The notes under the pieces are model-generated. The model saw only the letters and a list, made by a program, of their open reading frames with translations. It searched no databases and was not told the DNA's origin. 20,792 nucleotides of DNA from Nitrospinaceae bacterium (GTDB lineage: Bacteria; Nitrospinota; Nitrospinia; Nitrospinales; Nitrospinaceae): contig CBDCXH010000005.1 of the NCBI GenBank assembly GCA_965223665.1, positions 1 through 20,792 of the forward strand, in the 5' to 3' direction. Positions 34 through 20,703 of this stretch are shown piece after piece (the first letter of the stretch is position 1; every line of letters starts with the position of its first letter). Position numbers and translations under genes: made by a program.

Positions 34-54
34 AAAAGGGTGACCCCTAACTTC

Positions 55-1110: not shown

Positions 1111-1112
1111 TT

Positions 1113-1961: not shown

Positions 1962-2043
1962 TTTTCCACCTTCTTGAAATTAAGGACAATTTCCCCCCCG
2001 GTTTTTGTCCCTGTCAAATAAAAGCATAAATTTCTAAAATTCC

Positions 2044-2103: not shown

Positions 2104-2111
2104 CTGAATTT

Positions 2112-2366: not shown

Positions 2367-5257
2367 AGATTGATGCCCAAAAATTAAAAGAGGCTATCCC
2401 AATCGAGGAATATTATAGGGAAGAGTTGGGCGAACCCCAGAAAAACAATAAAGATCATCGGGTGTATTTTTGTCCCTTTCATGAGGATCATAAAACTCCT
2501 AATCTTGCCGTTTATTTTGAGGGAGGTTTTTATTGTTTTGCTTGTGAAGCTAAGGGGGGAGATGTGATTTCCTTTCACCGGGAAAAACACAATCTTTCTT
2601 TTTCAGATACTCTCAAGGAACTTGCCGAGAAATACGCTCCTGAATTGATTCCAAAGAATAATCCAAAGAAAAAGCAATCCATCACCAATACCTATTACTA
2701 CCTTGATGAAGAAGGAAAACTACTTTACCAGGCGGTTCGGTATGGACCTAAAAAGAAGTTTAGCTATAGAAAACCTAAGGGCAAGAATGATTGGGAATGG
2801 AACATTGAAAGTGTCCGACGCGTTCTTTACAACCTGCCCAATATTTTAAAGTCAGATGCACCTATATACTTAGGTGAAGGTGAAAAGGACTGTGACCTAC
2901 TCAATAAGGAGGGATTAACTGCAACCACCAATGTTTGTGGTGGTCTGAGTTGGGAGTCTGAATACAATCAGTTTCTAAAAGATAAAGATGTTGTAGTTCT
3001 TGAAGATAATGATGAGATAGGACGTAAACGTGGGAAGCTGATTTCAGAATCCCTGTTTGGAATTGCCAGTTCAATAAAAATCATTCGATTTCCCGATTTG
3101 AAGAAAGGCGGAGATGTCAGTGACTATGTTGATAAAAACTCCATCGAAGATTTTATAAGTTTAGTCGATACCGCTCCTTTATATGAAGGGAATTATGCAA
3201 GGTATTTTGGTGAAGAAGATTTAGAAGACGAACCTAACTCGAACCAAGCTTCACCCATTCGATTGGGTGATTATTCTCTGCGGGGTAATGGGTTTGTTTG
3301 GTACAAAAGCACGGCCAGTGGAGAAGTGCCTACATACCTCACTAACTTCACAGCAATAATTATTTCCCAAATTGAAAAAGATGATGGAGCGGAGGTGGTC
3401 CACTTTTTTGAGATGGAAGCCCAATTGATGGGGAATACTTATAAGTTCTTTGTAACCTCTGCAGAGTTTAGTTCTCTTAATTGGGTTGTGCGTGAATTGG
3501 GACCCCAAGCTATCCTTTATCCTGGATTTGGTTTAAAAGATCAAAGTCGTTGTGCCATTCAAATGTTTTCAAAAAATATCACCAAAAGAACCACTTATCG
3601 CCATCTGGGATGGAGAAAAATAAAAAAGGAATGGGTTTATCTTCATTCAGAAGGGTCCATTGGGCCGAAAGGGTCGAGAAAAGATAAAGAAGAAGTCGAT
3701 TTAGAAGGGTCTCGCTTGTCAGAGTACAAATTCCCTGATCCTCTACAAGGGGAGGAGTTGATAAAAGCCATCCAAGCAAGCCTAGATCTTTTTGATTTAG
3801 CTCCGGATATTGTTACTTTTCCTCTATTCTCCGCAGTATTCCGTGCGGTGTTAGGAGAAGCTTGTATCTTGGATTTTTCATTGTACCTGGTCGGTCCAAC
3901 AGGAAGTCTGAAAACGGAGATGACCGCTTTAGCGCAGGCCTTCTTTGGTAAGGGGTTTCATGGAAAATGTTTGCCGGGCAATTGGAACTCCACGGATAAC
4001 ACTCTGGAGAAGCAGTCTTTCCTAATAAAGGATGGAGTTCTGGTCATTGATGATTTTGCTCCTTCGGGGAGCAATAATGATATCGCTCGTCTTCATCAAA
4101 AGGCGAATCGTATTTTAAGGGGGCAGGGCAATAACTCCGGCCGCGGCAGAATGAGAGCCGATGGATCATTAAGAGCCGAATACTTTCCGCGAGGTTTGAT
4201 TCTTTCCTCCGGAGAGGATGTGCCCAAAGGTCAGTCCATACGCGCGAGAGCACTCATCCTTGAAATGTCTCCTGGCAGTGTTAATTTGGATAAACTCAGT
4301 TTAGCCCAAACTTTAGCAGCAGAAGGAGTATACGCTCAAGTCCTTTCTAGTTATATTCAGTTTCTTGCTCCAAAACTGGACGAACTCAAACAAACGTTGC
4401 CTAAAAGAAAAAATGAGATTCGCGATTTGGTGTTGGAAGAATTATCAGTTCATAAAAGAACGGCAGATTTGGTGGGCAGCCTCTACATTGGCTTTGAAAC
4501 CTATCTCGAATTTGCTCAAGAATCCGGGGCTATTAGCCCAGAACAAAGAGAACAATTACGGGTTCGTTTTCGAAAGGCCATTGTCCAAGCGGCACAAAAA
4601 CAAATTGACCATCAGGTTAATGAAGAACCGACACGCGTATTTTTGGATTTAATTTCTGCTTCGCTGATGAACGGGAGTGCTCATATTACTGACCCAGATG
4701 GCAAAATTCCTGAAGAGCCTCAGAAATGGGGTTGGCGTCTAGAGCAAAGATATGGTCCCAATGGGGAAGACAATAGTTACTGGATGCCATCGGGTGATCA
4801 CATTGGTTGGACGAAAGACAAGGATCTTTATTTAGAACCTAATGCCTCTTATGCCGCGGCGCAAAAGTTAGCTAGAAACCAAGGGACCACCATTCCTACA
4901 CAATCGCGGACTCTTTGGAAACGAATGCATGAAAAAAAATTGTTAGCCTCTCGCGATGAAGCAAGAGGAAGAAATCTAATTAGAAAAGAACTGCAGGGAA
5001 CCAGGCATACAGTTCTTCATTTGAACACTGATGTATTAACCTGGACAACCGACCCAAACGGCCCAATCATCCCACTTTCCAATGAAAACAAAGAGTTAGA
5101 AGACGATCCATTGGGCCGTAAATCTGAGGGTGGTTCAAAAACGTCCCACAATATCGGCCCAAACACTCGGAGAAATCAAGACCTTGGGACGAAAGGGCCG
5201 TTTGGGCCGAAAACACAAAATAGGACACAAGAGTCTTTTATTGAGGGGGAAATATGA
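2363..5257 (+). CDS. Primase-helicase replication protein (CHC2 zinc finger + Toprim + DUF927-like/P-loop helicase)
   Basis: CPFHEDH...CFAC zinc finger; Toprim EGEKD and EDND; Walker A-like GPTGSLKT and Walker B VIDD; GGAGG RBS upstream. Confidence 0.9.
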   Translation: MKIDAQKLKEAIPIEEYYREELGEPQKNNKDHRVYFCPFHEDHKTPNLAVYFEGGFYCFACEAKGGDVISFHREKHNLSFSDTLKELAEKYAPELIPKNNPKKKQSITNTYYYLDEEGKLLYQAVRYGPKKKFSYRKPKGKNDWEWNIESVRRVLYNLPNILKSDAPIYLGEGEKDCDLLNKEGLTATTNVCGGLSWESEYNQFLKDKDVVVLEDNDEIGRKRGKLISESLFGIASSIKIIRFPDLKKGGDVSDYVDKNSIEDFISLVDTAPLYEGNYARYFGEEDLEDEPNSNQASPIRLGDYSLRGNGFVWYKSTASGEVPTYLTNFTAIIISQIEKDDGAEVVHFFEMEAQLMGNTYKFFVTSAEFSSLNWVVRELGPQAILYPGFGLKDQSRCAIQMFSKNITKRTTYRHLGWRKIKKEWVYLHSEGSIGPKGSRKDKEEVDLEGSRLSEYKFPDPLQGEELIKAIQASLDLFDLAPDIVTFPLFSAVFRAVLGEACILDFSLYLVGPTGSLKTEMTALAQAFFGKGFHGKCLPGNWNSTDNTLEKQSFLIKDGVLVIDDFAPSGSNNDIARLHQKANRILRGQGNNSGRGRMRADGSLRAEYFPRGLILSSGEDVPKGQSIRARALILEMSPGSVNLDKLSLAQTLAAEGVYAQVLSSYIQFLAPKLDELKQTLPKRKNEIRDLVLEELSVHKRTADLVGSLYIGFETYLEFAQESGAISPEQREQLRVRFRKAIVQAAQKQIDHQVNEEPTRVFLDLISASLMNGSAHITDPDGKIPEEPQKWGWRLEQRYGPNGEDNSYWMPSGDHIGWTKDKDLYLEPNASYAAAQKLARNQGTTIPTQSRTLWKRMHEKKLLASRDEARGRNLIRKELQGTRHTVLHLNTDVLTWTTDPNGPIIPLSNENKELEDDPLGRKSEGGSKTSHNIGPNTRRNQDLGTKGPFGPKTQNRTQESFIEGEI
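3651..3677. repeat. Triad of 9-bp repeats inside the primase gene
   Basis: AAGGGTCCA-TTGGGCCGA-AAGGGTCGA; same consensus as the repeats at 5184-5210. Confidence 0.6.
5049..5210. repeat. Iteron-like 9-bp repeat cluster; candidate replication origin
   Basis: Triad CCGACCCAA-ACGGCCCAA-TCATCCCAC (5049-5075) is inverted relative to triad TTGGGACGA-AAGGGCCGT-TTGGGCCGA (5184-5210), 21/27 match. Single copies at 5111-5119, 5141-5149 and 5154-5162. Confidence 0.7.
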
Positions 5258-5556
5258 GCATCCATGAATTATTAGGACGTATTGAAAACATGGGGGGAGA
5301 GGTGTGGGTTGATAGTGATCTATTGAAATTCAAGATTCCAAATCAATATTGCACAGCTGAATTAATGGAACAATTAAAGAAAAGCAAATTCGAAATTATC
5401 CATACTATAAAGGAAAGGCAGCCCAAACCTTATTTAGCTTCAAATGGTGATCTGGTAATTCCCTTCGATTGTGATCAAAAGTACCATTGGTGGAAACCAG
5501 GTAGCATGAAAATTAAGGAAATTAGAGAAGAATTGCAAAAACATTGGAAAAATTAA
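5254..5556 (+). CDS. Small hypothetical protein with a TubC N-terminal docking-domain-like N-terminus
   Basis: MSIHELLGRIENMGGEVWVDSDLLKFKIP...LMEQLKKSKFEII pattern; ATGA overlap with the primase stop; GAGGGGG RBS. Confidence 0.7.
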   Translation: MSIHELLGRIENMGGEVWVDSDLLKFKIPNQYCTAELMEQLKKSKFEIIHTIKERQPKPYLASNGDLVIPFDCDQKYHWWKPGSMKIKEIREELQKHWKN

Positions 5557-5590
5557 TAAGCATATAATTCTAATTTTATTTGGATGAATT

Positions 5591-6301
5591 ATGTCAAAGC
5601 CTAAAGATAAATTAAAAAAAGCATTAAGAGATAAAGTTGAAGTAAAAAACCTGAGAGCCACAGCCAAGGAACTGGAAACGCCACCTTGCGTAGATACTTT
5701 GGGAGCCAGCTTCATGCGTTTAGATGCTGATGAATTAGAAGAACAAGCTCAGAAAGCTTTAAAAATTCCGGAGAATGAACTTCCTGCTGTGGGTTGTGGA
5801 GGTGAGTTATCTCTCTCCAAAGAGAGAGCAGAAGATTTACCCGCTCTGATAAATACCCTCGAAAAACCTGATAATGTAACTGCCGAAGCGAGTCAAGAGC
5901 GACTGCAATTGATATTCGATTCAGACTGCACTGGACTTGCTCTCGATGCGGCTGAAACCATCCAAGCCAAAAACTCGTTAGAAAAAATGCTGGCGCATCA
6001 ATTGGGTGCTGCTCATAAACTGGCGATGACATTTGCCAGTCGTTCACTGAGCAATTTGAGTGAAAGTGATAAAGCAATCACCTTCCAATGCAAGGAATAT
6101 TATTCATTAGAGTCTATACGAGCATCCAATGCTTCTGCCCGAATGATGGAAAGTTTTCAAAAAGGCATATTGGCTCTCAATAAACTACGAAACGGAGGGA
6201 GTCAAACCATCACGGTGCAACATATCAATGTAAAAAATGGAGGACAAGCAGTTGTAGCAGGGGCCTTTGATACCAGGGGGGATCATGAAAAACGTCAATG
6301 A
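5591..6301 (+). CDS. Conserved hypothetical protein of the type found next to HGGxSTG genes
   Basis: Motifs LEKMLAHQLGAAH and LRNGGSQTITVQHINVKNGGQAVVAG, recalled from uncharacterised mobile-element proteins. Confidence 0.75.
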   Translation: MSKPKDKLKKALRDKVEVKNLRATAKELETPPCVDTLGASFMRLDADELEEQAQKALKIPENELPAVGCGGELSLSKERAEDLPALINTLEKPDNVTAEASQERLQLIFDSDCTGLALDAAETIQAKNSLEKMLAHQLGAAHKLAMTFASRSLSNLSESDKAITFQCKEYYSLESIRASNASARMMESFQKGILALNKLRNGGSQTITVQHINVKNGGQAVVAGAFDTRGDHEKRQ

Positions 6302-6593
6302 ACTCCATGTACCCATTTGGGAGATAGGTTTAAACTATGCTAACCAAGCTCCTCGCTGTGGTGCCAAAACCAGACAAAAAACCTCTTGCCAAAGTCCTGC
6401 AATGAAAAATGGACGCTGTCGATTACATGGGGGTAAGAGCACAGGACCTCGCACGTTGGAAGGTTTGCAACGAAGCCGGAAGGCTAACTGGAAACATGGA
6501 AACCGCTCTGCAGAAGTTATTCAACAGAGAAAAGAGTCTATGAAAGTAAAAAAGGAATTAAATCGGTTGGTGGAATCTGTTGGGAATTTGTAA
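6285..6593 (+). CDS. HGGxSTG domain protein (Cys/His, probably metal-binding)
   Basis: RCGAKTR...CQSPAMKNGRCRLHGGKSTGPRT; ATG at 6285 with AGGGGG RBS; overlaps the upstream stop. Confidence 0.88.
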   Translation: MKNVNELHVPIWEIGLNYANQAPRCGAKTRQKTSCQSPAMKNGRCRLHGGKSTGPRTLEGLQRSRKANWKHGNRSAEVIQQRKESMKVKKELNRLVESVGNL

Positions 6594-6768
6594 TTGACAA
6601 AATTATAAAAATCTAAAACGTTTTTTAGCTATAAAAAGTTTCAAAAACCAAAATTTTTTTAAATTTCTCTTAGTTTAACATCTAGTATGAATTTCGGGGT
6701 TTGATCAGTCCAAGCAGGCTGTAATTTTGAACTGTTATTTTGCTCTGAAATAATTTGTATTTTGTTTT

Positions 6769-7527
6769 TTAATTATTTTCCTTTAGCTTCAGAAGTTCAT
6801 CAACTAACCCATGTCGAACTACGTCGATGTTATCCGTTTGCCGCGCCACAAAATCACCAGTTATCATCGAGAGCCGAAACGGGAAAAATGCCGGATTATT
6901 CAGCAAGGGCCCCAAAACCTCTTTGCCTTCAGGGATGGCATTCAACGCTGACTCGAACAACAAGATGGTTAGATTTTTGTCGGGAATGATTATTGGTATT
7001 TTCTTCTCGTAGCAACCTTTTGCATTTGCTTCCTTCAGAACACCCCACGCCACGAAAGAGCGAATTACATACCGGGTATAGCGGCTGACTGTTGATCTAT
7101 CTCCATATTGTTCCTTAATACGGTTTATAATTTGTGTCTGGGTAACCTGATCCTGCAGGGTGAGTAGCCTGCCTGCCTGCCGCGCCACATTAAACCAAAA
7201 CGGATACACAGCAGAAATCATAGCCCAATGAATAGATAGTGCCATGGATGGGTGCTCACAAAGTAATTCTAGGGCTTTGTCCCTAAAGCTCACTAATTCA
7301 GTATCGGGAGAAACCCAAATCTTCATCAGATTATTAACAACGAAGGTGCGGGTCTGATTACTACGTTCACCTTCGAAGCCGTTGCCTTTGCGTTCCAAAA
7401 GGAATTCGTGCAGTTCCTTCCGAATCATCTTGGAATCCAACCCGGCAAGAAGCAAGTTGGTAGTTTTTTGCATCCACTCATAGCGGATGGCCTGTTTGAT
7501 TCCGATGGCATAATGTCGCTTTCCCAT
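6769..7527 (-). CDS. brxA: BREX type 3 BrxA-like protein
   Basis: 252-aa helical protein directly after pglZ (TAATG overlap); occupies the last position of the type 3 order brxF-brxC-pglXI-brxHII-pglZ-brxA. Confidence 0.78.
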   Translation of the reverse strand: MGKRHYAIGIKQAIRYEWMQKTTNLLLAGLDSKMIRKELHEFLLERKGNGFEGERSNQTRTFVVNNLMKIWVSPDTELVSFRDKALELLCEHPSMALSIHWAMISAVYPFWFNVARQAGRLLTLQDQVTQTQIINRIKEQYGDRSTVSRYTRYVIRSFVAWGVLKEANAKGCYEKKIPIIIPDKNLTILLFESALNAIPEGKEVLGPLLNNPAFFPFRLSMITGDFVARQTDNIDVVRHGLVDELLKLKENN

Positions 7528-9521
7528 TACCGTAACTTCCTTTCAAACTTCACCAAGGGCACAATGACTTCCTCAACGGCAATGCCTCCATGACCAACAA
7601 TTGATTCATCAAGATTTACAAACGCATCGCTGGCACCGGCAACGAGTGGGAAATAGTCCGGCGGAAGGCCCACTGGTTGCCACTCGTGGGCAAAAGTAAA
7701 TGTGCTGGCCACCTGAGATCGCAACTCCGACGTTGGATAAACCCGAACTCTCTCACCACGTGTTTCAGCGATGACGCCTTCCGAAGGACGGCCCTTGCCA
7801 CGGCATTCAATATTACCGTGATCAGACGTCATCCAGACTTCATAGCCGTTATCCAGCAAATACCCGATCAGTGATCCGAGAAAACCTCCCTGGCACCACT
7901 GTTTAATCTGATTGTGCATTCCGGCTACACCAAGCTGCATACCGTGCATGATTTTGTCGACCTTGTCCACGACCAAACCAATTGCCTTAGTTTTACCAGG
8001 ATGCATTGTTTTTTCCAATATGCTTTCAACGTCGCCATCGCTCAGGCCTCGTTGGTAGGAAATGTCGAGACGGGAAAGACCAATGCCTTCCCAGAACTGC
8101 TTCCAGAGATTACCTTCGCTGTTGGTTGAATTAATTGACGATGGGAAATACAGTGGTGGTTTACCGGAAAAGATCGCCTGCCTAGATACAGATGTCAACG
8201 TCGGAATCCAAGCGAAGGTCGCAGATTCTCGCATAATCAGACTCCGATCCTGATCCTGGAGAGTCCGGCGAATGGTGACCCACTGATCCAACGCAAGCCC
8301 ATCGACCACAAGTAGGGCAACGCGACCTTCCTTCATATCTTCCAGACAGCGGGCCAGACATCGCGGGACATGGTGTAGCATCGCTGGGCTGGTCGGTGGC
8401 AAGTTGATCAAGCTAGCATAGTGAGCACTCAGCCACTGGGCAAAGGTTGCGTTCAAACCATCACCCATTTCCCTCAGCTTGTTCTTATCCGCTTCGTTGG
8501 AGCTACAGTGAACCAAGGCAGACAATTCGGCCCATTTCATAGCAAAGAAAGTCCAATCCGAATACTGGGCTTCTACAGTAGGAATACCATTCTCAGCAAG
8601 CCCGAAGAGGCGAGAAATACGCACTTCGTTATTATCCGCATCTGCTGCAATGATGCCGCAGCGTATCCAGGAATCAGTATCAATGACAACCTCGGGCTTC
8701 TGTATTGGGGAGAGTTTCCCTTCAACGAATAGATTACCGATGTAAACTCTGATGTCTTGATGATCAAACGGCAGGACATCAGGCCCCGCATATTTAAGAC
8801 CATACTCCGGGTCGTTCTCACACACCTGGTCTGACGTGCCTAGTTTATTTAAGAATAGCGGCCAGCGCTCCTGGAGAAATTCAAAGAAGGTTTCCCCATC
8901 CGGCACGATCTCATCCAGTGGCCATGCATGAAAGCAGTTATGCCCATTGAGTACCTGCACAATTCGATCAGCCAGTGCTTGTGGGATCTGAGTTTTATTG
9001 TTGTGCTGGCGGAGTAGTGTTCTCAATAGATCCACTTCATTCGTAATCAGTTCAGCCGCAATGCCGAACACCTGCCGCAAAATAAAGTCCTTGGTTGCAT
9101 TGTCCCCCATACGGTCGGGTGTCGACTTGCTCTGCGCCTCGAAGAGAATGTCCAGTAGACTGCGATCCAACTTTTCAATAACCCGATAGCTTAGATTTGG
9201 GAAAAGTCCGCCCAGATCAAAGGCCAACTTTCTTCCAGCCTGAAGTAAATCATACGGCAGAGATTTCAGTTCCGCATCCTGAAGACGAAGAATGACAACT
9301 AGATCGGTATGCTCACCACGATCCCAGATCGAGCGATATTTCGATTCATAGGCGTAACGGAACTCGACCGGATCGTTGAATTCAATCAGATCAAAACCCC
9401 GGTGGCGCAACTCAAGTGCTAGCATCTCCTCGGTTAGCAGACTGTCCGGGTCGGCGACCAGGGTGAGCTTGCTGACGTTCGGGACAAAATCGTTCAGGAT
9501 GGCGTCTCGCCAACTTCTCAT
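7527..9521 (-). CDS. pglZ: BREX-3 PglZ (alkaline-phosphatase superfamily)
   Basis: VVDGL, PTLTSVSRQAIF, TSDHG and HGG motifs; operon context. Confidence 0.93.
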   Translation of the reverse strand: MRSWRDAILNDFVPNVSKLTLVADPDSLLTEEMLALELRHRGFDLIEFNDPVEFRYAYESKYRSIWDRGEHTDLVVILRLQDAELKSLPYDLLQAGRKLAFDLGGLFPNLSYRVIEKLDRSLLDILFEAQSKSTPDRMGDNATKDFILRQVFGIAAELITNEVDLLRTLLRQHNNKTQIPQALADRIVQVLNGHNCFHAWPLDEIVPDGETFFEFLQERWPLFLNKLGTSDQVCENDPEYGLKYAGPDVLPFDHQDIRVYIGNLFVEGKLSPIQKPEVVIDTDSWIRCGIIAADADNNEVRISRLFGLAENGIPTVEAQYSDWTFFAMKWAELSALVHCSSNEADKNKLREMGDGLNATFAQWLSAHYASLINLPPTSPAMLHHVPRCLARCLEDMKEGRVALLVVDGLALDQWVTIRRTLQDQDRSLIMRESATFAWIPTLTSVSRQAIFSGKPPLYFPSSINSTNSEGNLWKQFWEGIGLSRLDISYQRGLSDGDVESILEKTMHPGKTKAIGLVVDKVDKIMHGMQLGVAGMHNQIKQWCQGGFLGSLIGYLLDNGYEVWMTSDHGNIECRGKGRPSEGVIAETRGERVRVYPTSELRSQVASTFTFAHEWQPVGLPPDYFPLVAGASDAFVNLDESIVGHGGIAVEEVIVPLVKFERKLR

Positions 9522-9982
9522 TGAGGGCCCCTCTTGATAATGCGCATCAGCAATAGTGGTCTAATTTTTGGAACGACCTGGCTAGCTAATTCGAGTTCAC
9601 TTCGCCAATCGGCTTCATCGGCCAACAGATAACCAAATTGATAGCCATAGATGGCTCGGGATAAGGCATGGATCTGGTGTGGCAACGGGATGACCTTAGA
9701 CTCGATAGGAGCCAGTAGCACATGGTCATCAGACTTGCTGGTGCTACCTTCCAAAACTTCAGACACTTTTACTGCCGCCACGATATAATTAATGCGATGA
9801 GCTTCGACATCGGGCTGCAATTCGGCCCCCAGTGGACACAATGCGGAGCGGGAAACCCGCACTACGGCATCCTGGTTTGGCAGCCAGACCCGACAAACCA
9901 TCTGTCCCCACAATGTCTGTTCTTCGACCTTGCAGGCACAGTTATGGATGGTTCTGTATTGCCATTGGTCCTCCATCGTCAT
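9518..9982 (-). pseudogene. brxHII: BrxHII SNF2-type helicase remnant with an internal in-frame deletion
   Basis: N-terminus runs through the Q-motif PLPHQ to LLADE, where GLGKT (motif I) should follow, but continues into ADWRSELE...IRPLLLMRI and stops after 154 aa. It sits in the brxHII slot and is coupled to both neighbours. Confidence 0.85.
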
Positions 9983-11028
9983 TACCCAGGTATTGAAAAA
10001 TCATTGTGGAAAACAACTGACGCTAACTCGATTGTCCCGTCGGAACATTCCCAGAAGTGGAGATGAAACTCTCTATCGATGTCTCGCCGCTGGGCTTTAT
10101 CAGCACCACGCATTCGTTGTGGGTCATTGCCACCAGGGCCAGTTCTAAGCGAATGAACATAAGCCAAATTCTGGCCTTTAATTGTTTCTATGATCGAGCG
10201 AAGTATTTTCGGCGGCAATGAATCACTTTGGCTCACACAACACTGCTGGCAGGTTTCTCTAAAATTAGCACCAATGCTTGGCACTGATGTATTACTCCAA
10301 TCTGGAATATCTTTTTGCTCAAGATCATATTTAAATAAGGCAATTCGAAGTGATAGTTTAATCCCAAGATCATCTGATGCGCCAACGAATATTGCTGCCT
10401 CGTCAAGACATTGTATTAGCCCATTGAAATCGTCGCATACTAATACCTCGCCTTCAAAGAATTCTGGTGGGCAAGGCAAAACGGGGAGATCGTCTCGTTC
10501 GTGCTCAATCTCATGAATTTGCGCTCTGACTTTAATGACCTGTTTTGGTGCTTCTCTCAATATGAAAGAATGCCCAGCAAGTGGTTGCGAACAATGTTTT
10601 CGGAGAATTGCAATTAGGGTGATACATCGCGCCAAATCCGATTGGAGTCCCTCCCAAGCTGTCAGTCTTATTATGTCCGGGTCTGTCTCAAGATGATCCG
10701 TTAGAACATCTTTTAATCGATAGTATGTTTCAAAAGAAGGGGTGATGGTCAGTAGTCGATCTACAATTGTAGCGACCGTGTTTACGTCATATTCGGATAT
10801 TCCATGCGCATCGAATATCTCACTAAGCTGATTCCGTAATGGATAAAGATTATCCGCAATAAGAGCTTCAGATGCCCTTTCGCTCATACGAATGGCTACC
10901 CAAGGTTCATCCAGGAGTTTGCTCCAATCCAGCAGCGTATCAATGTACTGATAAGCGTCATCAATGGTACAGGTGGATTGAGGAGCTGCAAGGATTCCAG
11001 CATCAATTGTTACGCTGAAATTATTCAT
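9982..11028 (-). CDS. Hypothetical protein; putative effector with a RelE/ParE-like C-terminal pattern
   Basis: 348 aa from the ATG at 11028 (GTG at 11031 is an alternative start); overlaps the ATPase stop. C-terminus RRDIDREFHLHFW...IELASVVFH resembles the end of RelE-fold RNases (inference). Confidence 0.7.
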   Translation of the reverse strand: MNNFSVTIDAGILAAPQSTCTIDDAYQYIDTLLDWSKLLDEPWVAIRMSERASEALIADNLYPLRNQLSEIFDAHGISEYDVNTVATIVDRLLTITPSFETYYRLKDVLTDHLETDPDIIRLTAWEGLQSDLARCITLIAILRKHCSQPLAGHSFILREAPKQVIKVRAQIHEIEHERDDLPVLPCPPEFFEGEVLVCDDFNGLIQCLDEAAIFVGASDDLGIKLSLRIALFKYDLEQKDIPDWSNTSVPSIGANFRETCQQCCVSQSDSLPPKILRSIIETIKGQNLAYVHSLRTGPGGNDPQRMRGADKAQRRDIDREFHLHFWECSDGTIELASVVFHNDFSIPG

Positions 11029-12937
11029 CACTCTTCTTTCTGCTTGCTTTTCTTTTTACAGTGGCGGCCCGCAAAATTTCTTCCGCCTGTTGCTGAGATT
11101 GATCAAAAAAGCCCTCTGGCCAGTCGGAGATAGCACCATACTCATTGATGATGACTTCGCGGAAAGAAGAGTTTTCCAGTGGTTTTTCGACGAAGTAAAT
11201 CTTTGTCTGGCTATTGAGTTCTTTGCCCGAGGCTGCTGCAATTCGGAATCTCAGACGGTCAATAAAATACTCGCTGTGAGTTTCAACGATACACTGCTTG
11301 TTACATATAGCCATCGACAAGAAAAAATCTCCTAGGAGCGTCTGAACCTTGGGGTGAAGGTGTAATTCTGGTTGCTCGAACACTAGTGTTGAGTCTGTGT
11401 CGGCCAAAAGGCACATTACTAGGATAGGAAGAACCTGGCTGACACCAACGCCGACATGCGTAAGATCATGAGTGGCATCTGAGTTGGCTAATCCTACCTT
11501 TAACTCATACCCTAACTTACCTTGATCACGACTTTTTACTGAGCTTGCAACGCCGAGGTATTGAAGCCAGTCAATAACTGCGGCCTCAAGGGTTCTCGTA
11601 ACTGTTTTACGGTTAATTGTTGGTGTTTCGAAGTGTGCTGAGGGAATGTACTCTATTTTTTTGTTCTTGTGCAGCTCAAGAATAGAGGCTGTGTGCTCGC
11701 CACGCAATCCAACATCATGTGGATCTGCTGCTGGCGCAAGTGGGTACAGGGGTTTAGGAGCATCCCTCAGTGGGCCAAGATACTTTAGTGATGAAGCAAA
11801 AAAATTATCTAAATAACACGCGGATTCTGTGATCTGCCGTGGTGGACGGGTTTGAACAAAATCATGATGTTCTGATGACGATGGACTCGATTCCTTCATT
11901 GCCCCAACGATGCGATCAAAGAGGTCGTCTGACTCTCGCAAGGCTTGCTGGATCTTCATTCTGGTATTACGTGGCAATGACCGCATGTGCTCATTCCAAG
12001 CCCTGAACGACATCGATTCGGAATCAGAACCGAAGAGGTGTTGCTGCTGATCCTTATCCCTGAAAGCATCGTCAAAATCTATGATATCCTCAAGTACATC
12101 ACGCAACACAGAAATAATCTCTTTAGAAAAAAGAATGTCTCTGCCTAGACGGTGCCGGAGTCCAATGGCACGACGGCCATCATCTTGCAGCACCATAATG
12201 AGCGCGTTGGCTTCTTCTTGGATGGTGTCAATTCCGTAAACGACACGCTCTGGAAGAAAGTGGCGTAGGACGCAACCAATGGCGCGGGCCGAACGAAAAT
12301 CTTCTTTTACTTCAGCCATGGATGTGTCGTCAATGTCGACGTCATAGGAGAGGCTGGTACGGAGCTGATCATCGATTTCACCGATGGTGTCCATGCCATC
12401 AATTTCAGAAAAACCTTTATTGGAAAGGCGGACTGCAATCTCTGCGCTTTTATCTACATTATCCTCATCTCTTGATGTGCAGCTTAATTCGCTCGCGAAT
12501 AACCTTGGCTGTATTTGAAACAAGTCTCTCAGAGAACTGGAAGGATCTGCATCAAATGAAATTTCGCATGTTATTTCCCGAAGCTGATATGATTGTAGAC
12601 CATAATAAAAATCCCTTCCAAATGGAACAGACCTCCGATGCGCTATCCTGTCAGGATCAGATAATGGACGGCAAGTACATTTGATTGAGATTTGATCTGA
12701 CACACTACCGTTCGACTTCAGGTCGTCGAATTGGCCAAGGCTCGTAAGCGCTCCGTTCAAAACTACTGATCGAGAGCTCACCTTATGGGCGAGTGTTTGA
12801 GCCACAAGCAGGATCGACTGGATAAATGTACTCTTACCACTGCTATTCGCTCCGGCGAAAATGGTAAGTGGTCCGAGATCCAATTCAGTCTCCTCCCGAA
12901 TTGACTTAAAATTAAACACCTTCCATTTGGTGATCAT
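11021..12937 (-). CDS. ABC-type (AAA_15/AAA_21-like) ATPase with a DUF3696-like C-terminus
   Basis: NFKS start; Walker A GANSSGKS; YLGPLR; signature-like GVGVSQ; Walker B VFEQPELHLHP; H-loop ETHS; C-terminal WPEGFFDQ. Confidence 0.9.
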   Translation of the reverse strand: MITKWKVFNFKSIREETELDLGPLTIFAGANSSGKSTFIQSILLVAQTLAHKVSSRSVVLNGALTSLGQFDDLKSNGSVSDQISIKCTCRPLSDPDRIAHRRSVPFGRDFYYGLQSYQLREITCEISFDADPSSSLRDLFQIQPRLFASELSCTSRDEDNVDKSAEIAVRLSNKGFSEIDGMDTIGEIDDQLRTSLSYDVDIDDTSMAEVKEDFRSARAIGCVLRHFLPERVVYGIDTIQEEANALIMVLQDDGRRAIGLRHRLGRDILFSKEIISVLRDVLEDIIDFDDAFRDKDQQQHLFGSDSESMSFRAWNEHMRSLPRNTRMKIQQALRESDDLFDRIVGAMKESSPSSSEHHDFVQTRPPRQITESACYLDNFFASSLKYLGPLRDAPKPLYPLAPAADPHDVGLRGEHTASILELHKNKKIEYIPSAHFETPTINRKTVTRTLEAAVIDWLQYLGVASSVKSRDQGKLGYELKVGLANSDATHDLTHVGVGVSQVLPILVMCLLADTDSTLVFEQPELHLHPKVQTLLGDFFLSMAICNKQCIVETHSEYFIDRLRFRIAAASGKELNSQTKIYFVEKPLENSSFREVIINEYGAISDWPEGFFDQSQQQAEEILRAATVKRKASRKKSDE

Positions 12938-12940
12938 TTG

Positions 12941-15787
12941 CTACTCGCCTCCCATTCTTGTTACTGCCTGGTCGTACCACATGAGCAATTTTGGATCTTC
13001 TTCGAGGATTTTGTTGGGGATTTTGTTAGCTACGGCCACAATGATGGCATAGTCCCGCTCCTGCCAGGCTTTTTTGAAACCCGTGCGGACAGCCTCCAAA
13101 CGAAAGGCCTTAAGTTGCTTTTTAACCTGCTTGTATTCCTCAAATTCCTTGAGCAGGTCTTTCTCGCGCAGTTTTTCGAGGTCGCCCGCCTTGTTAGGGT
13201 CGGGCACATACCAGCGGTCTTGTGCCTTTGCCACCAGTGACGAAGCGTCCTTGGGCAGATTACGCAATTCCTTCCAATTGGATGAGAGGTAAGCGTGGAT
13301 CTGCTCTGGCACTAATCCTTTTCCATCATAACGAAGGAAGTTTTGTTCAAGTAGCGTTGATAATTCAAGTGGAATCTCATTCTTATTCCAGCCACTGATT
13401 TCACGCATAAACAGCGGATGCAACTCTTGAAAAGATTGCGGCCGTTCTTTTAATAGTTGTCGTAGCCATTGTATGGCCGTCGCTTCATCCGAGATAAAGA
13501 ATGATGCTTGTATAAGCTCCTTACAAAGCATTCTCTTTCTGTCATAATCAGCGACTTGATCAGCTAAGAAAAACATCCCATCCCTTTCTGAAAAACGCTG
13601 CGTGAGGCCCAGGTAAAAGTTAGAAGAAGAGATTGAAACAGGCACTCCTCTTTGAACGTGAAAGGCGACCATTCGGTCAAACAACAGATAATTCTGTCTT
13701 TCCAAAATAGCTTCTGCCCGTCCATCTTTATATGTAAATACTGGAAGTTGCTTCAGATGTGTTCTAACAAAGTCCCAGACACCTTCTTCAGTGCCAGCTT
13801 CATGTCCGAATCGTTTCTCTAATCCCCCATTAGGCTTATATGCTGAGATAATTAGGTCTTGTTTTACCGCATTGGTGCTTGTCATTTGTTGCATTGTCAT
13901 CTGTTTTTTGTCTAATGTGCGTACATCAGCAACAACAAAACCTGCAAATTGCAAGGCTTCTTGTATCGATACCCATACACTATTTTTTGAATTGTGAAAC
14001 TCTACAGTCATCCATCTACCAGGCTTTAATGCTTTGTAATAATTATCAAAACATTGAGTCATTAGTGCTTGGTATTCGGCCATGCCTTTAGATTGCTTTT
14101 TGCTTACTACCGCCTCTTGGTGAGTGTTCTCAACTATCCCAAGCCAACTATCCCAAATAAAGTTCAAATCAGAGTACATTATATTTCCGCCAAATGGCGG
14201 ATCAGTAAAAATATAATCGACAGAATTTTCACACAGGAAGTTGTCAGCACTGGATCGTGCGTTAACCAAATTTAAAGAGGTCCGGTTTAAGGAGAGCAAT
14301 TTTTTTATTTTTTTTATTTTTCCTTTCAAAGCATACTCCAAAGACACTTCTGTGGTGAATGGGGCCACATACAGGGTTCCTTTGAGATACCTATTTACTT
14401 GAGAAAACGAAGCTTCCAAATAGCGATTGAGTTTGGAAAAACCTAGAATGCCAGTTTGAATCCAAAATTTAAGAGTAAGACTTTGTTTCGATGCATCTGC
14501 TCTGTTCCACGCAATAGCTAGCATGGCTAATGTTCGTTTCGTATAAAAGTGATGTATATGCGTAAGACCAATGTTATCGTTTCGTCTTGCCTCATCTCCA
14601 TCAGGCATTCTTAGACATGGGAACGCAAAATCTATTTTGTAGTTTTCAATCTTGTAAAGTGTATCGAGATCGTCTCTGTCAGGTGTTTTTTCAAATTTTT
14701 GTCCATCGTATGAGTAATTTATTAAAACCGGTTGTTGTTTTATTTGGGATACCGTGGTGCCTAGAGTACTGTCATATCGGGTTTCTTTAACTCTTTCCCA
14801 TTTTTTAAGCACCGATTCTGAAGAACACCCTGAACATTTAATGGGTTCATCTTTTTTCTTTCTATATCTTGTGTCGGGATCGACTGCGAGATCCCAATAT
14901 GTAGATTCATAACCACAATTTTCGCAGCGAAATACCTCGCTCCATACTGTATAGTTAATTTTCCCTGGCCGATTGTCAGTATGCTTAGTTTTATACATCC
15001 ACCCGCATTGCTCTTCGGCTTCCTTGAGAATACGCTTGGCTTCCTTTTCAAAAGAAGCGACATCCACCGATGTATTATAGTTATATGCTATGAAGGTAGC
15101 AGCAGGTGACAAGTCATTCAATACTGCCCGGCGCATGCCTAGTTTACCAAAAGGTTTCCATACCTTCTGGCCTTTCTCATTAATTTCTTCCTGCAAAATG
15201 GTGCCGTCTGGTTTTACCTGATAGCCAAGCGACATGACCGTATCTCGATCACCACACATTTGGGCGGCAACGCCGGTCATACCTGTGCCGCAAAAACCAT
15301 CGAAAACAATATCCCCTGGCTCGGTGTAATGCAGGATGTAACGCATGATGGCCTTGTGAGGGACCTTGGTGTGGTAGGAGTGTACATTGTAAATAGGATC
15401 GCTCTTGCCTTCGCTTACGTCAGCTGCGAACGGTTCACGGTGGTATTGGTAGTCCTCTGGTTTTTCTGGCTTTTCCCCTTCCCATTCGGCAATAAAATCG
15501 GCAACCCAGGGATTCGGGCAGGCCGTATAGTACGGCGGATCGCTTAAGGTCAGGATATTCTCATCGCTGCCGATGGGAAAGCCCTCGATCTTACGAAACT
15601 CCAGATCGCGTAGCTTTTTGCGTAGCTTTTCGTTGAAGTACTTGCGCCGTTCCTCGTCATTGTTAAAGGTCATGCCGAGACAGGTCACCGGTTCTGATTG
15701 GGGCAATATCTCCTCCTCAAAAAGTTGGTCGGAGCCTTTTTTTGCAGGAACCATTCTAGTTTGGAATAGATTGTCTTGCTTGGTCAT
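12941..15787 (-). CDS. pglXI: BREX-3 DNA amino-methyltransferase PglXI
   Basis: SAM-binding DGFCGTGMTG; catalytic TDPPF; zinc ribbon CENC...CSGC; HSYHTKVP motif; lies downstream of brxC. Confidence 0.9.
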   Translation of the reverse strand: MTKQDNLFQTRMVPAKKGSDQLFEEEILPQSEPVTCLGMTFNNDEERRKYFNEKLRKKLRDLEFRKIEGFPIGSDENILTLSDPPYYTACPNPWVADFIAEWEGEKPEKPEDYQYHREPFAADVSEGKSDPIYNVHSYHTKVPHKAIMRYILHYTEPGDIVFDGFCGTGMTGVAAQMCGDRDTVMSLGYQVKPDGTILQEEINEKGQKVWKPFGKLGMRRAVLNDLSPAATFIAYNYNTSVDVASFEKEAKRILKEAEEQCGWMYKTKHTDNRPGKINYTVWSEVFRCENCGYESTYWDLAVDPDTRYRKKKDEPIKCSGCSSESVLKKWERVKETRYDSTLGTTVSQIKQQPVLINYSYDGQKFEKTPDRDDLDTLYKIENYKIDFAFPCLRMPDGDEARRNDNIGLTHIHHFYTKRTLAMLAIAWNRADASKQSLTLKFWIQTGILGFSKLNRYLEASFSQVNRYLKGTLYVAPFTTEVSLEYALKGKIKKIKKLLSLNRTSLNLVNARSSADNFLCENSVDYIFTDPPFGGNIMYSDLNFIWDSWLGIVENTHQEAVVSKKQSKGMAEYQALMTQCFDNYYKALKPGRWMTVEFHNSKNSVWVSIQEALQFAGFVVADVRTLDKKQMTMQQMTSTNAVKQDLIISAYKPNGGLEKRFGHEAGTEEGVWDFVRTHLKQLPVFTYKDGRAEAILERQNYLLFDRMVAFHVQRGVPVSISSSNFYLGLTQRFSERDGMFFLADQVADYDRKRMLCKELIQASFFISDEATAIQWLRQLLKERPQSFQELHPLFMREISGWNKNEIPLELSTLLEQNFLRYDGKGLVPEQIHAYLSSNWKELRNLPKDASSLVAKAQDRWYVPDPNKAGDLEKLREKDLLKEFEEYKQVKKQLKAFRLEAVRTGFKKAWQERDYAIIVAVANKIPNKILEEDPKLLMWYDQAVTRMGGE

Positions 15788-15854: not shown

Positions 15855-18800
15855 CTACTCTATTACGATTCTTACTTTGGCCGGGTCTTTGCCCTTGGTA
15901 AGTTGATCTATATATTCCTCAAAGCGTTTTTTCATCTCCCCCGGGGTGGCCGGACCGTTTGCGACCTGCAGGGCATTCTGCAAGTCCTGTGCTTTTACTG
16001 TAACTTTGACCAGACCAGAGAGCACCTCTTTAAGGGCATGCACGAAGTTGCTGTTTAGCGGTACCGGCAACTCACGCGATTTGATGAAGGCTTCCAGCGG
16101 TTCGCGATCGTCAATCTTTAGCAGGTCCATGTTGGCTTGGGTGATCGGGTCCTCCAGGTTGCCGAGAATAGTGGAAGTCCAGCCCGCAATCATGGCATCG
16201 AGTTCGGTGTCCATCTGGTCAATCATTTGCGAGCCTGTCCCTGCAACGGTTTCGATCGACGGACGTAAACCGCAGTGCGGGCAGATAGGGGTAGAATCCA
16301 GGTCCTGCTCGGTCAGGGCAATACAGCTCTTTTGTCCTGCCAAGCGGTTTTGAAAATCGGTGAGCTGTTGCCTCGGCATCAGGTCGATACCTGCCAGTTT
16401 GAGCAGAGTTTGCAGCCGCGGGTCATTGAGTAGCGCCGCTTTGCGCTTGTCATCGTTCATGCCCAGCCTGGCTTTGGTGTGTAGGCCGATGTAGGCAACA
16501 ATGTAATCCTTCTTGAGCTTTCGAAGTTTGGTTCCGGTGTCGTGGGATTGTGTTGTCAGTTCGGACAGGGTCGCCGGTTTAAGTACATCTAGGATATCCT
16601 GTCGGGTCGCCTTCATGCGGTCCACCCAATCGTGCTCGGCGGGAAGCACCGCTTCGGCGGTGGAGAGCCATGAAGCCGTTGGACCATGGCCCATGACGAA
16701 CTCGCGCAGGGCGGCAAGATCATCCAAGGCCTTTATTGCCTTTTCGTAAGCTATCACTTCCTGGGCGCTGTAACGGAAGTTCTTCAGCTTTCCCGGCGAT
16801 GAGTAGGCCTGAAGCGATTCAAAGAAAGTCTTGGCTTCGTCCAGTCCATTAGCCTGCCTGTCTAGGTCGGTGCCCGCGAGCAGATCAAGCCCCCAGAAAG
16901 AAAGACTTTCCTGCAGCGTCTGCTGGGTCATGACAATGCGTTTGACCACATTACCCACGGCATGCTGAAGGTTCTGTAATGGCTCTTCCTTACCTTGGGT
17001 GACAAGCTGGGCCATACCCGGCGTCATGCCGAGTAATTCGAATAAAGCCTTGAGTGCAGGCAGATTCCATTCCTTTGGCTGTTCCAGGTGCTTGAACCGA
17101 ACCAATTCGTCCATACCGGTTGCGGCAAGCTGTTGAAGCCCAGTGGCATCAAACTTCTTTCCAGGGATTGCAAGCACGACGTCGCCCGAATAAATCAAGG
17201 CTGCAAGGATAACCGCTACCCATTCAGGTTCCAGCCTTGAGGCTCCCGGATTCATGTACTCGAGACCGTGGTCGTCCTGGATGATTTCGCTACGGTTCAC
17301 CACCTGCCCATGCCCCTTGGCCTTTATGGCATCAAGGATGAACTTGGCGTACTTCGATTTGTAGGGATCAATTTTTTCGCCATCGAGCAATTCCAGAGCG
17401 TCTAATACAGCTGTGGCCTGTTTGGTGCGGTTCTGCCCAGCAATGGCCCTCAGGGTATCCTGTGCGGCCTGGACAAGATTGTTACCTGTGATTAGGACTG
17501 AAAACTTTGGGTAGTCGGGTGCTTGATCAACAAAGTTTGGTGCAAGGCAAATACCCGCGATAGCATTTATTAAATCACGAAAATTGATGGTCTCGTTAGG
17601 AGCTACCCCGGAAATATCTCGAACTGACATCCCCTTTGCCCACTCAGTCATTGACTTGGTACGTCCCTGATAAGTAACTTCGAAGGCTTCGCTCATGTGC
17701 TTCTGCAGCCATTGGACTAACTTTTTTAAGAAGCCGTTGGCTTTCGACTCGTATGTGGACTTAGCATGCCCAGATGAGGTGGCCGCTAGATCAAGCGCTG
17801 CTGCATAGCTCTTAAGCGCGGTCAGAAATTCTTCGTCGGTGCCTTTCAGCCTGAAGAATACCTCATCTTTCCATTTGTCATCCTTAAACCGAGGCGGATC
17901 GTTCGGCTGGATGAAATAAAGATAAAAGTCTCGCTGAGGCACAGCGGTGGAACGCTCATTGGGAGCCCCGAAGAACATATAGCCTGTACGTGCCGCCTTA
18001 CGCTCATGCCATACTAACTCATGCTGCCATATCTTATAACCGGTAACATAGGTGGCATCTTGGCATTCCATGACCCGTTTGAGAGCCTCATAATAGAAGC
18101 GATCGAGGTGAGCTTTATCCAAGCTTTCAGCTCGTTTGTCGATCAGGGCATCGAAGTCGTCGGTCTTTTTCAGGTCCAGATAGAACTGACTGTTATCCTC
18201 ATTAAAGGAAATGAACTGGCCGCTAACCGTATTGTGTATTTCGCGCAAGACGGTTTCCACATGAGTCTGTAAATCTTTGTCTGGTTCGTCACTGCCCAAC
18301 TCAACGATCATGGGTTCAAAAAGGCAAAGGCGATCACGCAATTCCTCAGCAGATGCGCCCATTGGAGCATGTATGTCGCCAGTGGTCAGACGATGGACTG
18401 AAAGTGCGTGTATAAGGCGCAGTGCCATCGGCTTATACTGTTTGCGGGTGATACCGTTTTCGATACGCGATTCCAACACTTGGCTGCAATCCATAACCGC
18501 CCTGATTTCAGGAATGGTACGGAAGGATGCGTTCTGTTTGAGCGTGTTCCAGTAACTATCAAAGGCAATCAGTGCCGGCTCGTCCGGGGGCACATCTTTT
18601 CCCAGAACCCCTTTCATACAGATGGATAGAGTCCTTAGCACCTCACGTTTTTCGACCACGGAGACCCGCTCGAATGTGTCGATGTAATCGGGATGCACGG
18701 GGAAGAGCCGGACGAATTCATCCATACGCTCGTTGAGTCCTCCATAGTATTTAGCAAAGGGCGTCAGGTATTCTCGGATCTTGGCTTGCTGCTCGGCGGT

Positions 18801-19586
18801 CTTCTTAAGCAGACGCTCGGACACCACAAACTTGACGTCATTCCTTGCGATTAGAATCTGTTCAAAGCGATCCTTTACCCGGCGAACGCTGTCGGCCACA
18901 AAGGAAAAACGGGGGCTATCAAAAATGGCTTCCTGCACACCGGCCATAAAGCGAAAGCGCAGGTCTTTACATACTTCTCCGACCTCGCGTAGGAAGTTGA
19001 GGTCTAGTATCAGTTCCTGGTCCTTGCGAGTGCGTAAATAGTCTAGCAATTCATCGACCACCAGGAGCAAGCCGTGTTCAGGATAAGCCTGACCGAACTT
19101 CTCCATCATGTCTTCGAAGGCCCTCTTATGGTTGGTTGTTGCATCGATCTCTGGAAAGACATAATCTACACCGAGCTTATCGAGGTTTTCTTCAAGTTCG
19201 GCGATTAGAATATCGCGCAGGGACATGGTGGTTGCACCGATTTCAGTGCGGATGACCTTAAAGCGGCCAGCAATCTGCTTTGCAGCTTGGGTTACATTAG
19301 TATGATTAAGGTTGTCCAATAGAGATGCATCTGCAGCAAGACTGGATACCACCGACATCAAATGTGATTTGCCGGTTCCGTAGTTGCCAACAACCAGGAT
19401 GCCTTTGTTATCTACTGGCTGTTCGAACTGCAACTGCGGAAAAACAAGTTGAATCAGTCGTTCCGCCATTTCCTCTGAAATGACGTAGGTATTGATAAGA
19501 TGCTGTGCGGCGCTGGCTCTGTCCGCATCACGCAACTGAACAACTGATTCAATCGGGTCAAATTGGATAAGATCACCATATTTCAT
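15855..19586 (-). CDS. brxC: BREX-3 large P-loop ATPase BrxC/PglY (DUF6079-like)
   Basis: 1243 aa; Walker A GNYGTGKS; Walker B VVDE; FPVHP motif; C-terminal CPHC; TAATG overlap with brxF. Confidence 0.9.
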
Positions 19587-20098
19587 TATTTTGCTGCCCC
19601 TTTTGTTTTCTTTTCTGAATCGATTGTTGCCGTTCCATCCATACCCACTATTAATGCATCGACCATGTCATAACTCCTATACTCAGGATGTCCTATTTCG
19701 GCATAGACAAGCATCTGGCCCTCGATTGCACCACTCCAGGATGCCAATACCGTTCGATTTCTGGATATGCTCTGCAGGAGCCGCAAGGGATCTTGCTTCA
19801 AATCTTTGTCAAATAGGATTTCTAGGTTATCAAGAACCACAATCGCCTTTGCATTATCAGCAACGTGATCTATTATTCTGGGCAGGTGGAGTGCCCGTTG
19901 TTTATCCGTCAGCTCGAGCAATTCAGTTGAGATAGCCAGACTAATATTTATGACTTCAGTATCAAAGCTATCTGCGGTTCCACGAAGGACACCGGTTTTG
20001 CCAGAACTAGTCTCACCCACCAGCAATACCAAACGGTGATACAGGCCATCGGCTACCTGGAGGGATCGTTTTATTTTACTTTGAATTAAATCTGTCAT
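19586..20098 (-). CDS. brxF: BREX-3 P-loop protein BrxF
   Basis: [40 protein letters not shown]; first brx gene of the operon. Confidence 0.9.
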
Positions 20099-20396
20099 GG
20101 TTTTTACTAATTGACTGATTTCCTACTCTTTTTTTTCTTGATTGCATTTCTATATGAATATCCACTCGCTGGTCTAGTTTATTAAGAATTTTAATCAACC
20201 GGTCAATAGTAAATCGGCCAAGATCTCCATTTCGAATACGGGAAAAATCAGCAGCGGTAAATTTTGTAGCAGCCTGAGCTTCCCGAACGGATAATTTCCG
20301 GTCTTCAAGGATATGAATAATTTTTTCACTTAAACCTGCCTTAATTTGATCTATATCATGGCTATTAGAAACAGCTTGTTTGGTTGCAGTCTTCAT
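20076..20396 (-). CDS. XRE-family (HTH_37/HigA-like) transcriptional regulator
   Basis: LSVREAQAATKFTAADFSRIRNGDLGRFTIDRLIKIL HTH pattern; ATG at 20396 with AGGA upstream; overlaps the brxF start by 23 nt. Confidence 0.85.
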   Translation of the reverse strand: MKTATKQAVSNSHDIDQIKAGLSEKIIHILEDRKLSVREAQAATKFTAADFSRIRNGDLGRFTIDRLIKILNKLDQRVDIHIEMQSRKKRVGNQSISKNHDRFNSK

Positions 20397-20413
20397 ATTG
20401 TAGTTGTTCCTAC

Positions 20414-20456
20414 TTATAGTTTTTATTAGACTTAAACATATTGTCAAAAATGACAA
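20414..20456 (-). promoter_or_regulatory. Candidate promoter/operator of the defence operon
   Basis: Perfect palindrome TTGTCA-AAAA-TGACAA (20441-20456) overlaps a minus-strand TTGACA (20447-20442). The -10 box is weak (TAAAAA at 16-nt spacing). Confidence 0.6.
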
Positions 20457-20703
20457 CACCGGTCAAGGATATTTTGGGAGGACTTTACCTCTACTTTTTA
20501 ATGACTTTTAATTTCCTTTATGGCGTCTTTTTATTGCCCTAAGCGTGAACCTCTTTCCGTTTCTATCTGCAGGGGTTAGAAAAACATTACATCGATCTAC
20601 CTGCTTTACTCCTATTTACTGAAGTTTGACCTGACCTCAAAAATTTAGTCCAAAAGTTCAAATGGGCCAAAAAAAGGCCAATGGACTATCATTTTTCTCA
20701 ATT

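Follow-up and report, generated by a model that had tools for sequence, protein, structure and literature searches.

A deletion remnant of brxHII in a type 3 BREX operon from a Nitrospinaceae contig

The 20,792-base stretch of DNA analyzed here (the window) is one entire contig, CBDCXH010000005.1, of a Nitrospinaceae bacterium. It carries on its minus strand a type 3 bacteriophage exclusion (BREX) operon in the order helix-turn-helix (HTH) gene, brxF, brxC, pglXI, ATPase gene, a gene for a protein of 349 amino acids (aa), a 154-aa open reading frame (ORF), pglZ and brxA. We interpret the 154-codon ORF as what is left of the helicase gene brxHII after a deletion between short repeats, most likely dispensable and decaying while the rest of the operon is intact, and put the probability of this interpretation at roughly 0.75. 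Sequence comparisons confirmed that the ORF encodes the BrxHII N-terminus fused in frame, at the ADE of motif I, to the BrxHII C-terminus, as an earlier note based on the letters alone had proposed.

What remains of BrxHII

The ORF (minus strand, 9982-9518) translates to 154 aa, with no stop or frameshift inside. Residues 2-123 matched positions 2-115 of the 933-position PADLOC BrxHI/BrxHII model (E value 1.8e-40), and neither Pfam nor NCBIfam gave a match to the ORF. A search for longer homologs found 1,650 proteins at an E value ≤0.001; the best 120 of these 1,650, to which all counts of full-length relatives below refer, are 953-987 aa long and have SNF2 and helicase domains. By BLASTP, all 120 matched the N-terminal block of the stub, and in 115 of 120 another block (about residues 121-154) reached the C-terminus of the subject (E ≤1e-3), so that the outcome named in the earlier note as speaking against a fusion, a tail that fails to align with BrxHII C-termini, did not occur. 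Identity to full-length BrxHII was 75-79% over the N-terminal 123 residues and 65-88% over the last 31-34, with the best match to the C-terminal block among the relatives listed at residues 929-961 of P0002 (88% over 33 residues).

The same picture emerged at the DNA level. Against brxHII of Thiohalocapsa marina (locus L001), nucleotides (nt) 19-368 of the stub corresponded to nt 13-365 and nt 361-465 to nt 2794-2898. As expected in the earlier note for an alignment to the nearest full-length genes, these are two colinear blocks, with nothing inserted between them and an 8-nt overlap (GCCGATGA). A tblastn search of the window with P0002 returned just these two blocks, in one reading frame, and no further helicase pieces anywhere in the window. 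Full-length BrxHII (965 aa in L001, 961 aa in P0002) occupies the same operon position, directly before pglZ and with the same ATGA overlap; compared with P0002, the stub lacks about 808 internal codons.

The loss begins at Walker A: the two RecA lobes and the degenerate nuclease domain are missing, as is most of the C-terminal domain. The sequence ends at LLADE, and the Swi2/Snf2 ATPase core (motif I GLGKT, both lobes, SNF2-rel_dom and Helicase_C) is absent. BrxHII of L001 and of a second related locus, L002, matches SNF2-rel_dom, Helicase_C, ResIII and DEAD in Pfam, and the stub matches none of them. From the degenerate nuclease-like and C-terminal alpha+beta domains together, it retains only the last 31-34 residues. 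Hence, lacking Walker A, the RecA lobes and the degenerate nuclease domain, the stub cannot act as a motor or ATPase. Retained are the Tudor core residues W7, C17, V19, L24, W25, G26, C30, W33, L34, P35, V40, V41 and R42, together with a PLPHQ segment that resembles the Q motif of superfamily 2 helicases. An AlphaFold model of the stub (pLDDT confidence score 43.4, pTM fold score 0.32, 35-row alignment) was too poor to use and is uninformative either way. The ORF and its parts are as follows (all minus strand):

9518..9982: brxHII remnant ORF, 154 aa (P0001; PADLOC BrxHI/BrxHII)
9758..9982: Tudor-domain region, residues 1-75 (limits as given in the available text of PMC12839542)
9623..9757: start of helicase lobe 1, residues 76-120, including PLPHQ and the strand YLL before motif I (alignment to the 120 relatives)
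9632..9649: divergent patch YGYQFG, residues 112-117, replacing SGDRVR
9614..9622: junction GCC GAT GAA (A121 D122 E123), common to both parental blocks
9521..9613: residues 124-154, the last ~31 BrxHII residues (sequence alignment)
9980..9984: TAATG stop/start overlap from the 349-aa ORF to the stub (TAA 9984-9982, ATG 9982-9980)
9518..9521: ATGA overlap from the stub to pglZ (stub TGA 9520-9518, pglZ ATG 9521-9519)

Going by the domain description in the available text of PMC12839542, residues 124-154 would correspond to the end of a long helix and, in the C-terminal domain, to its final strand.

The deletion junction

On the minus strand, positions 9625-9605 read TTG GCC GAT GAA GCC GAT TGG, in which GCCGAT occurs twice (9622-9617 and 9613-9608). 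The earlier note pointed to GCCGAT as repeated at the join; the letters were read correctly, but the second copy is no duplication, being the native A-D of a C-terminal motif, ADE-x-D/E-W (ADEVDW in P0002, ADESEW in L001). The accompanying proposal, recombination between short ADE-encoding repeats, gains support from the relatives and not from the GCCGAT repeat. ADE is present at the N-terminal site (motif I) in 119 of the 120 full-length relatives and a second ADE lies 31-34 residues before the end in 85, and P0002, the closest relative among those listed, has ADEV at both breakpoint sites. Judged by these relatives, the join would therefore sit exactly on a pre-existing short repeat, as microhomology-mediated deletion predicts, and the colinear parental blocks with no insert between them are likewise those expected of a microhomology deletion.

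A single deletion of about 2.4 kilobases (~808 codons) would thus have joined the ADE of SNF2 motif I (LLADEVGLGKT) to the ADE located 31-34 codons before the stop, most likely via RecA-independent recombination or slippage between short identical stretches. The predicted product still contains the Tudor domain, some 45 residues of helicase lobe 1 and, from the C-terminal domain, a fragment consisting of part of a helix and one strand. A local repeat search at 9400-10100 gave nothing relevant.

Constraint on the remnant

To assess conservation, we used the 44 columns in which 116 unique reference N-parts show at least 97% conservation. At 6 of these 44 near-invariant columns the stub departs (references: median 0, 90th percentile 1, maximum 6), and it is also missing one codon, the I of KVIEEQ. 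Replacements were further compared with those in a sister operon composed of P0002 (BrxHII) and P0242 (PglZ), taken as one 15,945-base contig. PglZ has evolved evenly on both branches (29-31 window-unique versus 31-33 sister-unique replacements), whereas the BrxHII N-part shows 14-16 window-unique versus 6-8 sister-unique replacements. On the window branch, unique replacements amount to about 15 of 121 residues in the BrxHII N-part versus 30 of 664 in PglZ (Fisher P = 0.002), or roughly 2.7 times more per site; on the sister branch, the corresponding values are 7 of 121 and 32 of 664 (P = 0.65). These comparisons provide moderate evidence for relaxed constraint on the stub after the deletion and do not support a retained function; the stub is, most likely, dispensable and in slow decay.

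Other lesions in brxHII

Short homologs of the stub were sought within a length window of 84-270 aa, which recovers deletions with both breakpoints near the ends of the gene; 203 were found, 120 of which are listed. A hidden Markov model of the C-terminal 60 residues picked six fusion proteins among these 120, including that of the window. Leaving the window stub aside, in-frame N/C fusions thus make up 5 of the 119 short homologs listed, and no two of these five have the same junction (numbering of P0036):

P0122: N-side ends at 133, C-side starts at 834
P0156: N-side ends at 124, C-side starts at 909
P0190: N-side ends at 120, C-side starts at 933
P0193: N-side ends at 127, C-side starts at 916
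P0230: N-side ends at 72, C-side starts at 891
Window stub: N-side ends at 123, C-side starts at 932

Six fusions with six junctions do not constitute a conserved mini-protein family of Tudor domain plus tail, and the window protein's own cluster has one member. P0156 deviates at 11 of the 44 conserved columns and P0122, P0190, P0193 and P0230 at 0-1, and the fusions look like scars of graded age, from young to old. The different junctions and unequal decay thus argue for independent, short-lived scars rather than for a conserved mini-protein. In five of the six fusions, the N-side breakpoint falls within residues 120-133. The identical deletion, which the earlier note proposed to look for in other strains, was not encountered: when species-representative genomes were screened with the stub, two of the 81 pattern matches encoded relatives (L001 and L002), neither of which has the deletion, the five listed fusions all have other junctions, and a nucleotide search with positions 9300-10200 found no match in E. 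coli genomes or plasmids.

Further lesions of other kinds were also observed. P0181 and P0188 carry BrxHII residues 1-84 or 1-63 fused in frame to PglZ from about residue 310-331; the deletions in these two are larger, and the front of pglZ is also gone. In L002, which belongs to a metagenome-assembled genome, homology of brxHII (1887-4172) to that of L001 stops at residue 731 of 761, representing another, different truncation, and the last ~30 residues resemble the N-terminus of a 23S ribosomal RNA intervening-sequence protein. A protein of this kind is encoded between brxC and pglXI in L001.

Translation of pglZ and brxA

Both couplings described in the earlier note, TAATG at the start of the stub and ATGA at its end, are present. 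The ATGA into pglZ is native, since L001 has it too and in the same CAATGAG context; at the upstream end, L001 and L002 have ATGA overlaps where the window has TAATG. The stub thus lies in the expected operon position, between pglXI and pglZ and overlapping the pglZ start, with a two-gene insert separating it from pglXI, as is likewise the case in L001 and L002. The immediate upstream neighbor is consequently not pglXI but the inserted 349-aa gene, which is preceded by the ATPase gene.

As the deletion is in frame and the ATGA is native, termination-reinitiation at pglZ is preserved. Ribosomes would still terminate at the native ATGA, and translation of pglZ and brxA is probably undisturbed. 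It is plausible, as the earlier note suggested, that the frame was kept to spare pglZ and brxA from polarity, and the distal junctions are in frame in 8 of 8 recognizable products. When the junk tails of the short homologs were compared with L001 by tblastn, 11 proved to be contiguous frameshifts (E <0.01), and no tail had a match to a distal stretch read out of frame.

Evaluation of the deletion-scar interpretation and its alternatives

Several observations weigh against a dispensable remnant formed by a simple short-repeat deletion. The microhomology is visible by proxy, via relatives, and not in the parent sequence, and the two ADE sites of L001 are identical at 7 of 9 nt. The stub ORF has no stop or frameshift and all its Tudor core residues are retained. 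The assignment of P0002 and P0242 to one sister operon is one that we infer from the length and source of their contigs, which agree. With the BrxHII N-part alone, a Tajima relative-rate test was not significant (P = 0.05-0.29 with four outgroups); without the six-residue patch, the N-part has 10 unique replacements in 115 residues, a twofold excess over PglZ at P = 0.07; and deviations showed no significant enrichment outside the Tudor region (2 of 28 versus 8 of 38, P = 0.17). About 36 tails of at least 10 aa among the short homologs are unexplained and could hide out-of-frame deletions. With these tails, and with a length window favoring large end-to-end deletions, a bias toward in-frame products is suggested but not established, which tempers the polarity argument above.

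The YGYQFG patch beside the junction is a further difficulty, as it is not accounted for by a simple one-step deletion. It stands where SGDRVR is near-invariant, with 5 of 6 residues changed and 8 of 18 nt matching L001, and the 15 residues preceding it are exactly those of the consensus. A divergent patch 9-27 nt upstream of the junction hints at a more complex event, and its cause may possibly be a mutation cluster from the deletion event or later remodeling. No donor was identified in the window, where the 27-mer has no second copy at ≤3 mismatches. A compensated frameshift was considered as the origin of the patch and rejected on a by-eye reading of the alignment, as it did not reproduce SGDRVR. 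A match of AIYG to residue ~685 of the full-length proteins (104 of 120) was dismissed as coincidence because one changed residue suffices for it.

A different account, in which the stub is a maintained mini-protein, appears unlikely on balance. Here the Tudor domain, perhaps capped by the C-terminal peptide, would bind nucleic acid or a partner in BREX, serving as a scaffold or regulator, and N/C fusions would be recurrently selected. The recovery of six in-frame fusions among 120 of 203 short homologs could be read in this way, yet the junction is different in every fusion and no clade has a common one. Likewise, the position of five of the six N-side breakpoints just past the N-terminal region would suit a selected product, but the search recovers only breakpoints near the ends. 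The uninterrupted ORF, the two kept gene overlaps and the invariant Tudor core are set against many replacements at near-invariant positions in both the window stub and P0156, and the C-terminal piece is, in the available text of PMC12839542, a fragment of a five-stranded domain and does not make up a domain by itself. In the patch, the five exchanges of polar or charged residues for Tyr, Phe, Gln or Gly might reflect adaptive remodeling. The retained interaction role that the earlier note allowed for the stub is not supported, given the excess of near-invariant replacements, a branch faster than that of PglZ and the lack of a common junction elsewhere.

Still more speculative is the idea that removal of the motor by short-repeat deletion is a recurrent, selected switching-off or re-tuning of the helicase step, with pglZ and brxA still translated. 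The Tudor-plus-tail product would then dock with the BREX complex as a scaffold or dominant-negative regulator, and the aromatic patch beside the junction would re-pack the new fold adaptively; we consider this improbable.

A misassembly, or a variant present in a minority of the population while the genome proper has a full-length brxHII, is very unlikely as the source of the deletion: the contig is metagenomic in style and lacks close relatives in the E. coli, plasmid and species-representative collections, but a common stretch of 8-9 nt at the join would presumably not suffice to collapse an assembly graph, the fusion is in frame in a stub with lineage-specific changes (the codon loss and the patch), and comparable fusions are present in five other independent proteins.

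The BREX operon and its inserted gene pair

The genes of the operon other than the stub are listed below (all minus strand):

20076..20459: HTH_37 protein, 127 aa, at the head of the operon, with a 23-base overlap with the brxF start (weak PADLOC capH match, E 8e-4)
19586..20098: brxF, intact (PADLOC BrxF, E 1.3e-59)
15855..19586: brxC/pglY, intact (PADLOC BrxC profile 1-1231 of 1231; Pfam DUF6079)
12941..15787: pglXI methyltransferase gene, intact (PADLOC PglXI profile 4-918 of 919)
11021..12937: inserted ABC-type ATPase gene (Pfam AAA_15/AAA_21 and DUF3696; PADLOC NsnB, 3.9e-76, HEC-03B and PDC-M55A)
9982..11031: inserted gene for the 349-aa partner of the ATPase, with no family and a C-terminal RelE/YafQ-like fold as a lead only
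7527..9521: pglZ, intact, 664 aa (PADLOC PglZ, residues 1-662 to profile 1-664 of 666; Pfam PglZ; 87% identical to P0242)
6769..7527: brxA, intact, 252 aa (PADLOC BrxA, E 3.5e-111, profile 1-250 of 251)

BrxF, BrxC, PglXI, PglZ and BrxA each match their PADLOC profiles end to end. Five of the six core genes of type 3 BREX are therefore full-length and brxHII covers 115 of 933 profile positions; judged by this profile coverage, the locus is a type 3 BREX whose sixth gene is defective. The 127-aa HTH_37 protein is possibly a regulator. Scans of positions 6500-13300 revealed no excess of promoters (8 versus 9.1 ± 3.3 in shuffled sequences) or terminators (10 versus 6.2 ± 2.5). Identity to the L001 proteins was 84.5% for BrxC, about 76% for PglZ and BrxA, and 52.6% for PglXI. 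The GC content falls to 0.38 at about 14000-15000, within pglXI (12941-15787), and together with the low PglXI identity, this dip may indicate an exchanged target-recognition region.

The gap between pglXI and brxHII serves as a cassette slot in all three loci compared (9982-12941 in the window, 7741-10007 in L001 and 1-1890 in L002). The three ATPase and small-partner pairs occupying it are mutually non-orthologous (the L002 partner is a DUF4276 protein), and in each case the last cassette gene runs into the start codon of brxHII, as TAATG or ATGA. The 349-aa protein has 609 cluster representatives at E ≤1e-3 and no Pfam, PADLOC or NCBIfam match. Its AlphaFold model (pLDDT 95.7) gave its best PDB fold matches to the toxins YafQ, RelE, YoeB and ParE over about 95 columns (E 0.04-0.1, probability 0.99, template modeling score 0.6-0.68 on the target), and the C-terminal helix-helix-four-strand unit has near-invariant His, Arg, Tyr and Glu. 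As a lead, the model suggests that the inserted pair may combine an ATPase sensor with a RelE-fold ribonuclease effector.

The notion that this pair displaced the helicase, with loss of brxHII following arrival of the cassette, is hardly credible: the ABC-type ATPase and its partner do lie directly upstream of the stub with a translational overlap, but ABC-type ATPases are not helicases, the cassette is situated upstream of the stub's start codon and not at the internal breakpoints, and L002 has such a pair alongside a brxHII with an intact helicase core. Moreover, L001 has a pair in the slot plus a full-length brxHII; hence, the insert does not explain the deletion. BxaP (PMC10799925) and, in the available text of PMC12839542, OLD-type ABC ATPase pairs have been placed in BREX loci previously.

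Comparison with known systems

As described in the available text of PMC12839542, BrxHII consists of a Tudor domain (~1-75), a Swi2/Snf2 unit (~75-670), a degenerate nuclease-like domain and, at the C-terminus, an alpha+beta domain, in a layout that parallels RapA, the E. coli RNA-polymerase-associated Swi2/Snf2 ATPase, which has the same domain order with an N-terminal Tudor-type domain. RapA was also the closest solved relative of full-length BrxHII (P0002) in our structure comparison (PDB 6bog, 4s20 and others; E ~1e-37). The match covers the helicase core, which is lost in the stub, and RapA differs in having a tandem Tudor pair (PMC12839542, available text).

The same source gives BrxHII a share of 77% (702 taxa) among type 3 BREX loci, leaving 23% without it, and truncated pglX and brxL are described in the available text on Antarctic cyanobacterial metagenome-assembled genomes (PMC9716671). 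The window and these cases thus have in common that one component has been naturally lost or truncated in a locus whose remainder persists, whereas the available parts of PMC9716671 and PMC12839542 describe no in-frame N/C fusions or breakpoints, both of which the window has. The brxHII remnant is accordingly a known kind of lesion, an ordinary deletion scar, and similar scars arise independently in other environmental sequences.

Literature searches on BrxHII and on type 3 BREX turned up no experiment with a type 3 system. In the type V BREX of Haloarcula hispanica, deletion of brxHII left defense against HHPV3 and HHPV4 and methylation intact, according to the portion available of bioRxiv 10.64898/2026.04.28.721311. 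That knockout is likewise a BREX without a working BrxHII, although it concerns an archaeal type V system and a laboratory deletion, in contrast to the bacterial-type type 3 system of the window with its natural in-frame deletion leaving a remnant. With brxF, brxC, pglXI, pglZ and brxA intact, the locus probably still methylates DNA, and, going by the type V knockout, it may still defend, helped by the embedded ATPase/effector pair. By analogy, the likeliest state is a helicase-less, otherwise working BREX.

The five intact BREX genes and the extra change in the remnant agree with the published case of a dispensable BrxHII and suggest that type 3 BREX also persists naturally without its helicase. 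The few independent fusions counted here hint that internal deletions often strike brxHII, which could provide a natural experiment on the helicase's contribution. Current understanding of BREX is unchanged by these results. For annotation pipelines, the consequence is that such an ORF would be left as a hypothetical protein, or the locus would be miscounted as a complete type 3 BREX when it is actually helicase-less.

Adjoining mobile-element genes

Mobile-element genes adjoin the BREX operon on the plus strand at 1-6600:

13-1110, plus: tyrosine integrase
2363-5257, plus: 964-aa protein that has a CHC2 primase zinc ribbon and matches DUF927 weakly
5254-5556, plus: small TubC_N-like ORF

Several further ORFs in this region have no family, and its GC content is 0.30-0.45, compared with about 0.5 in the BREX genes.

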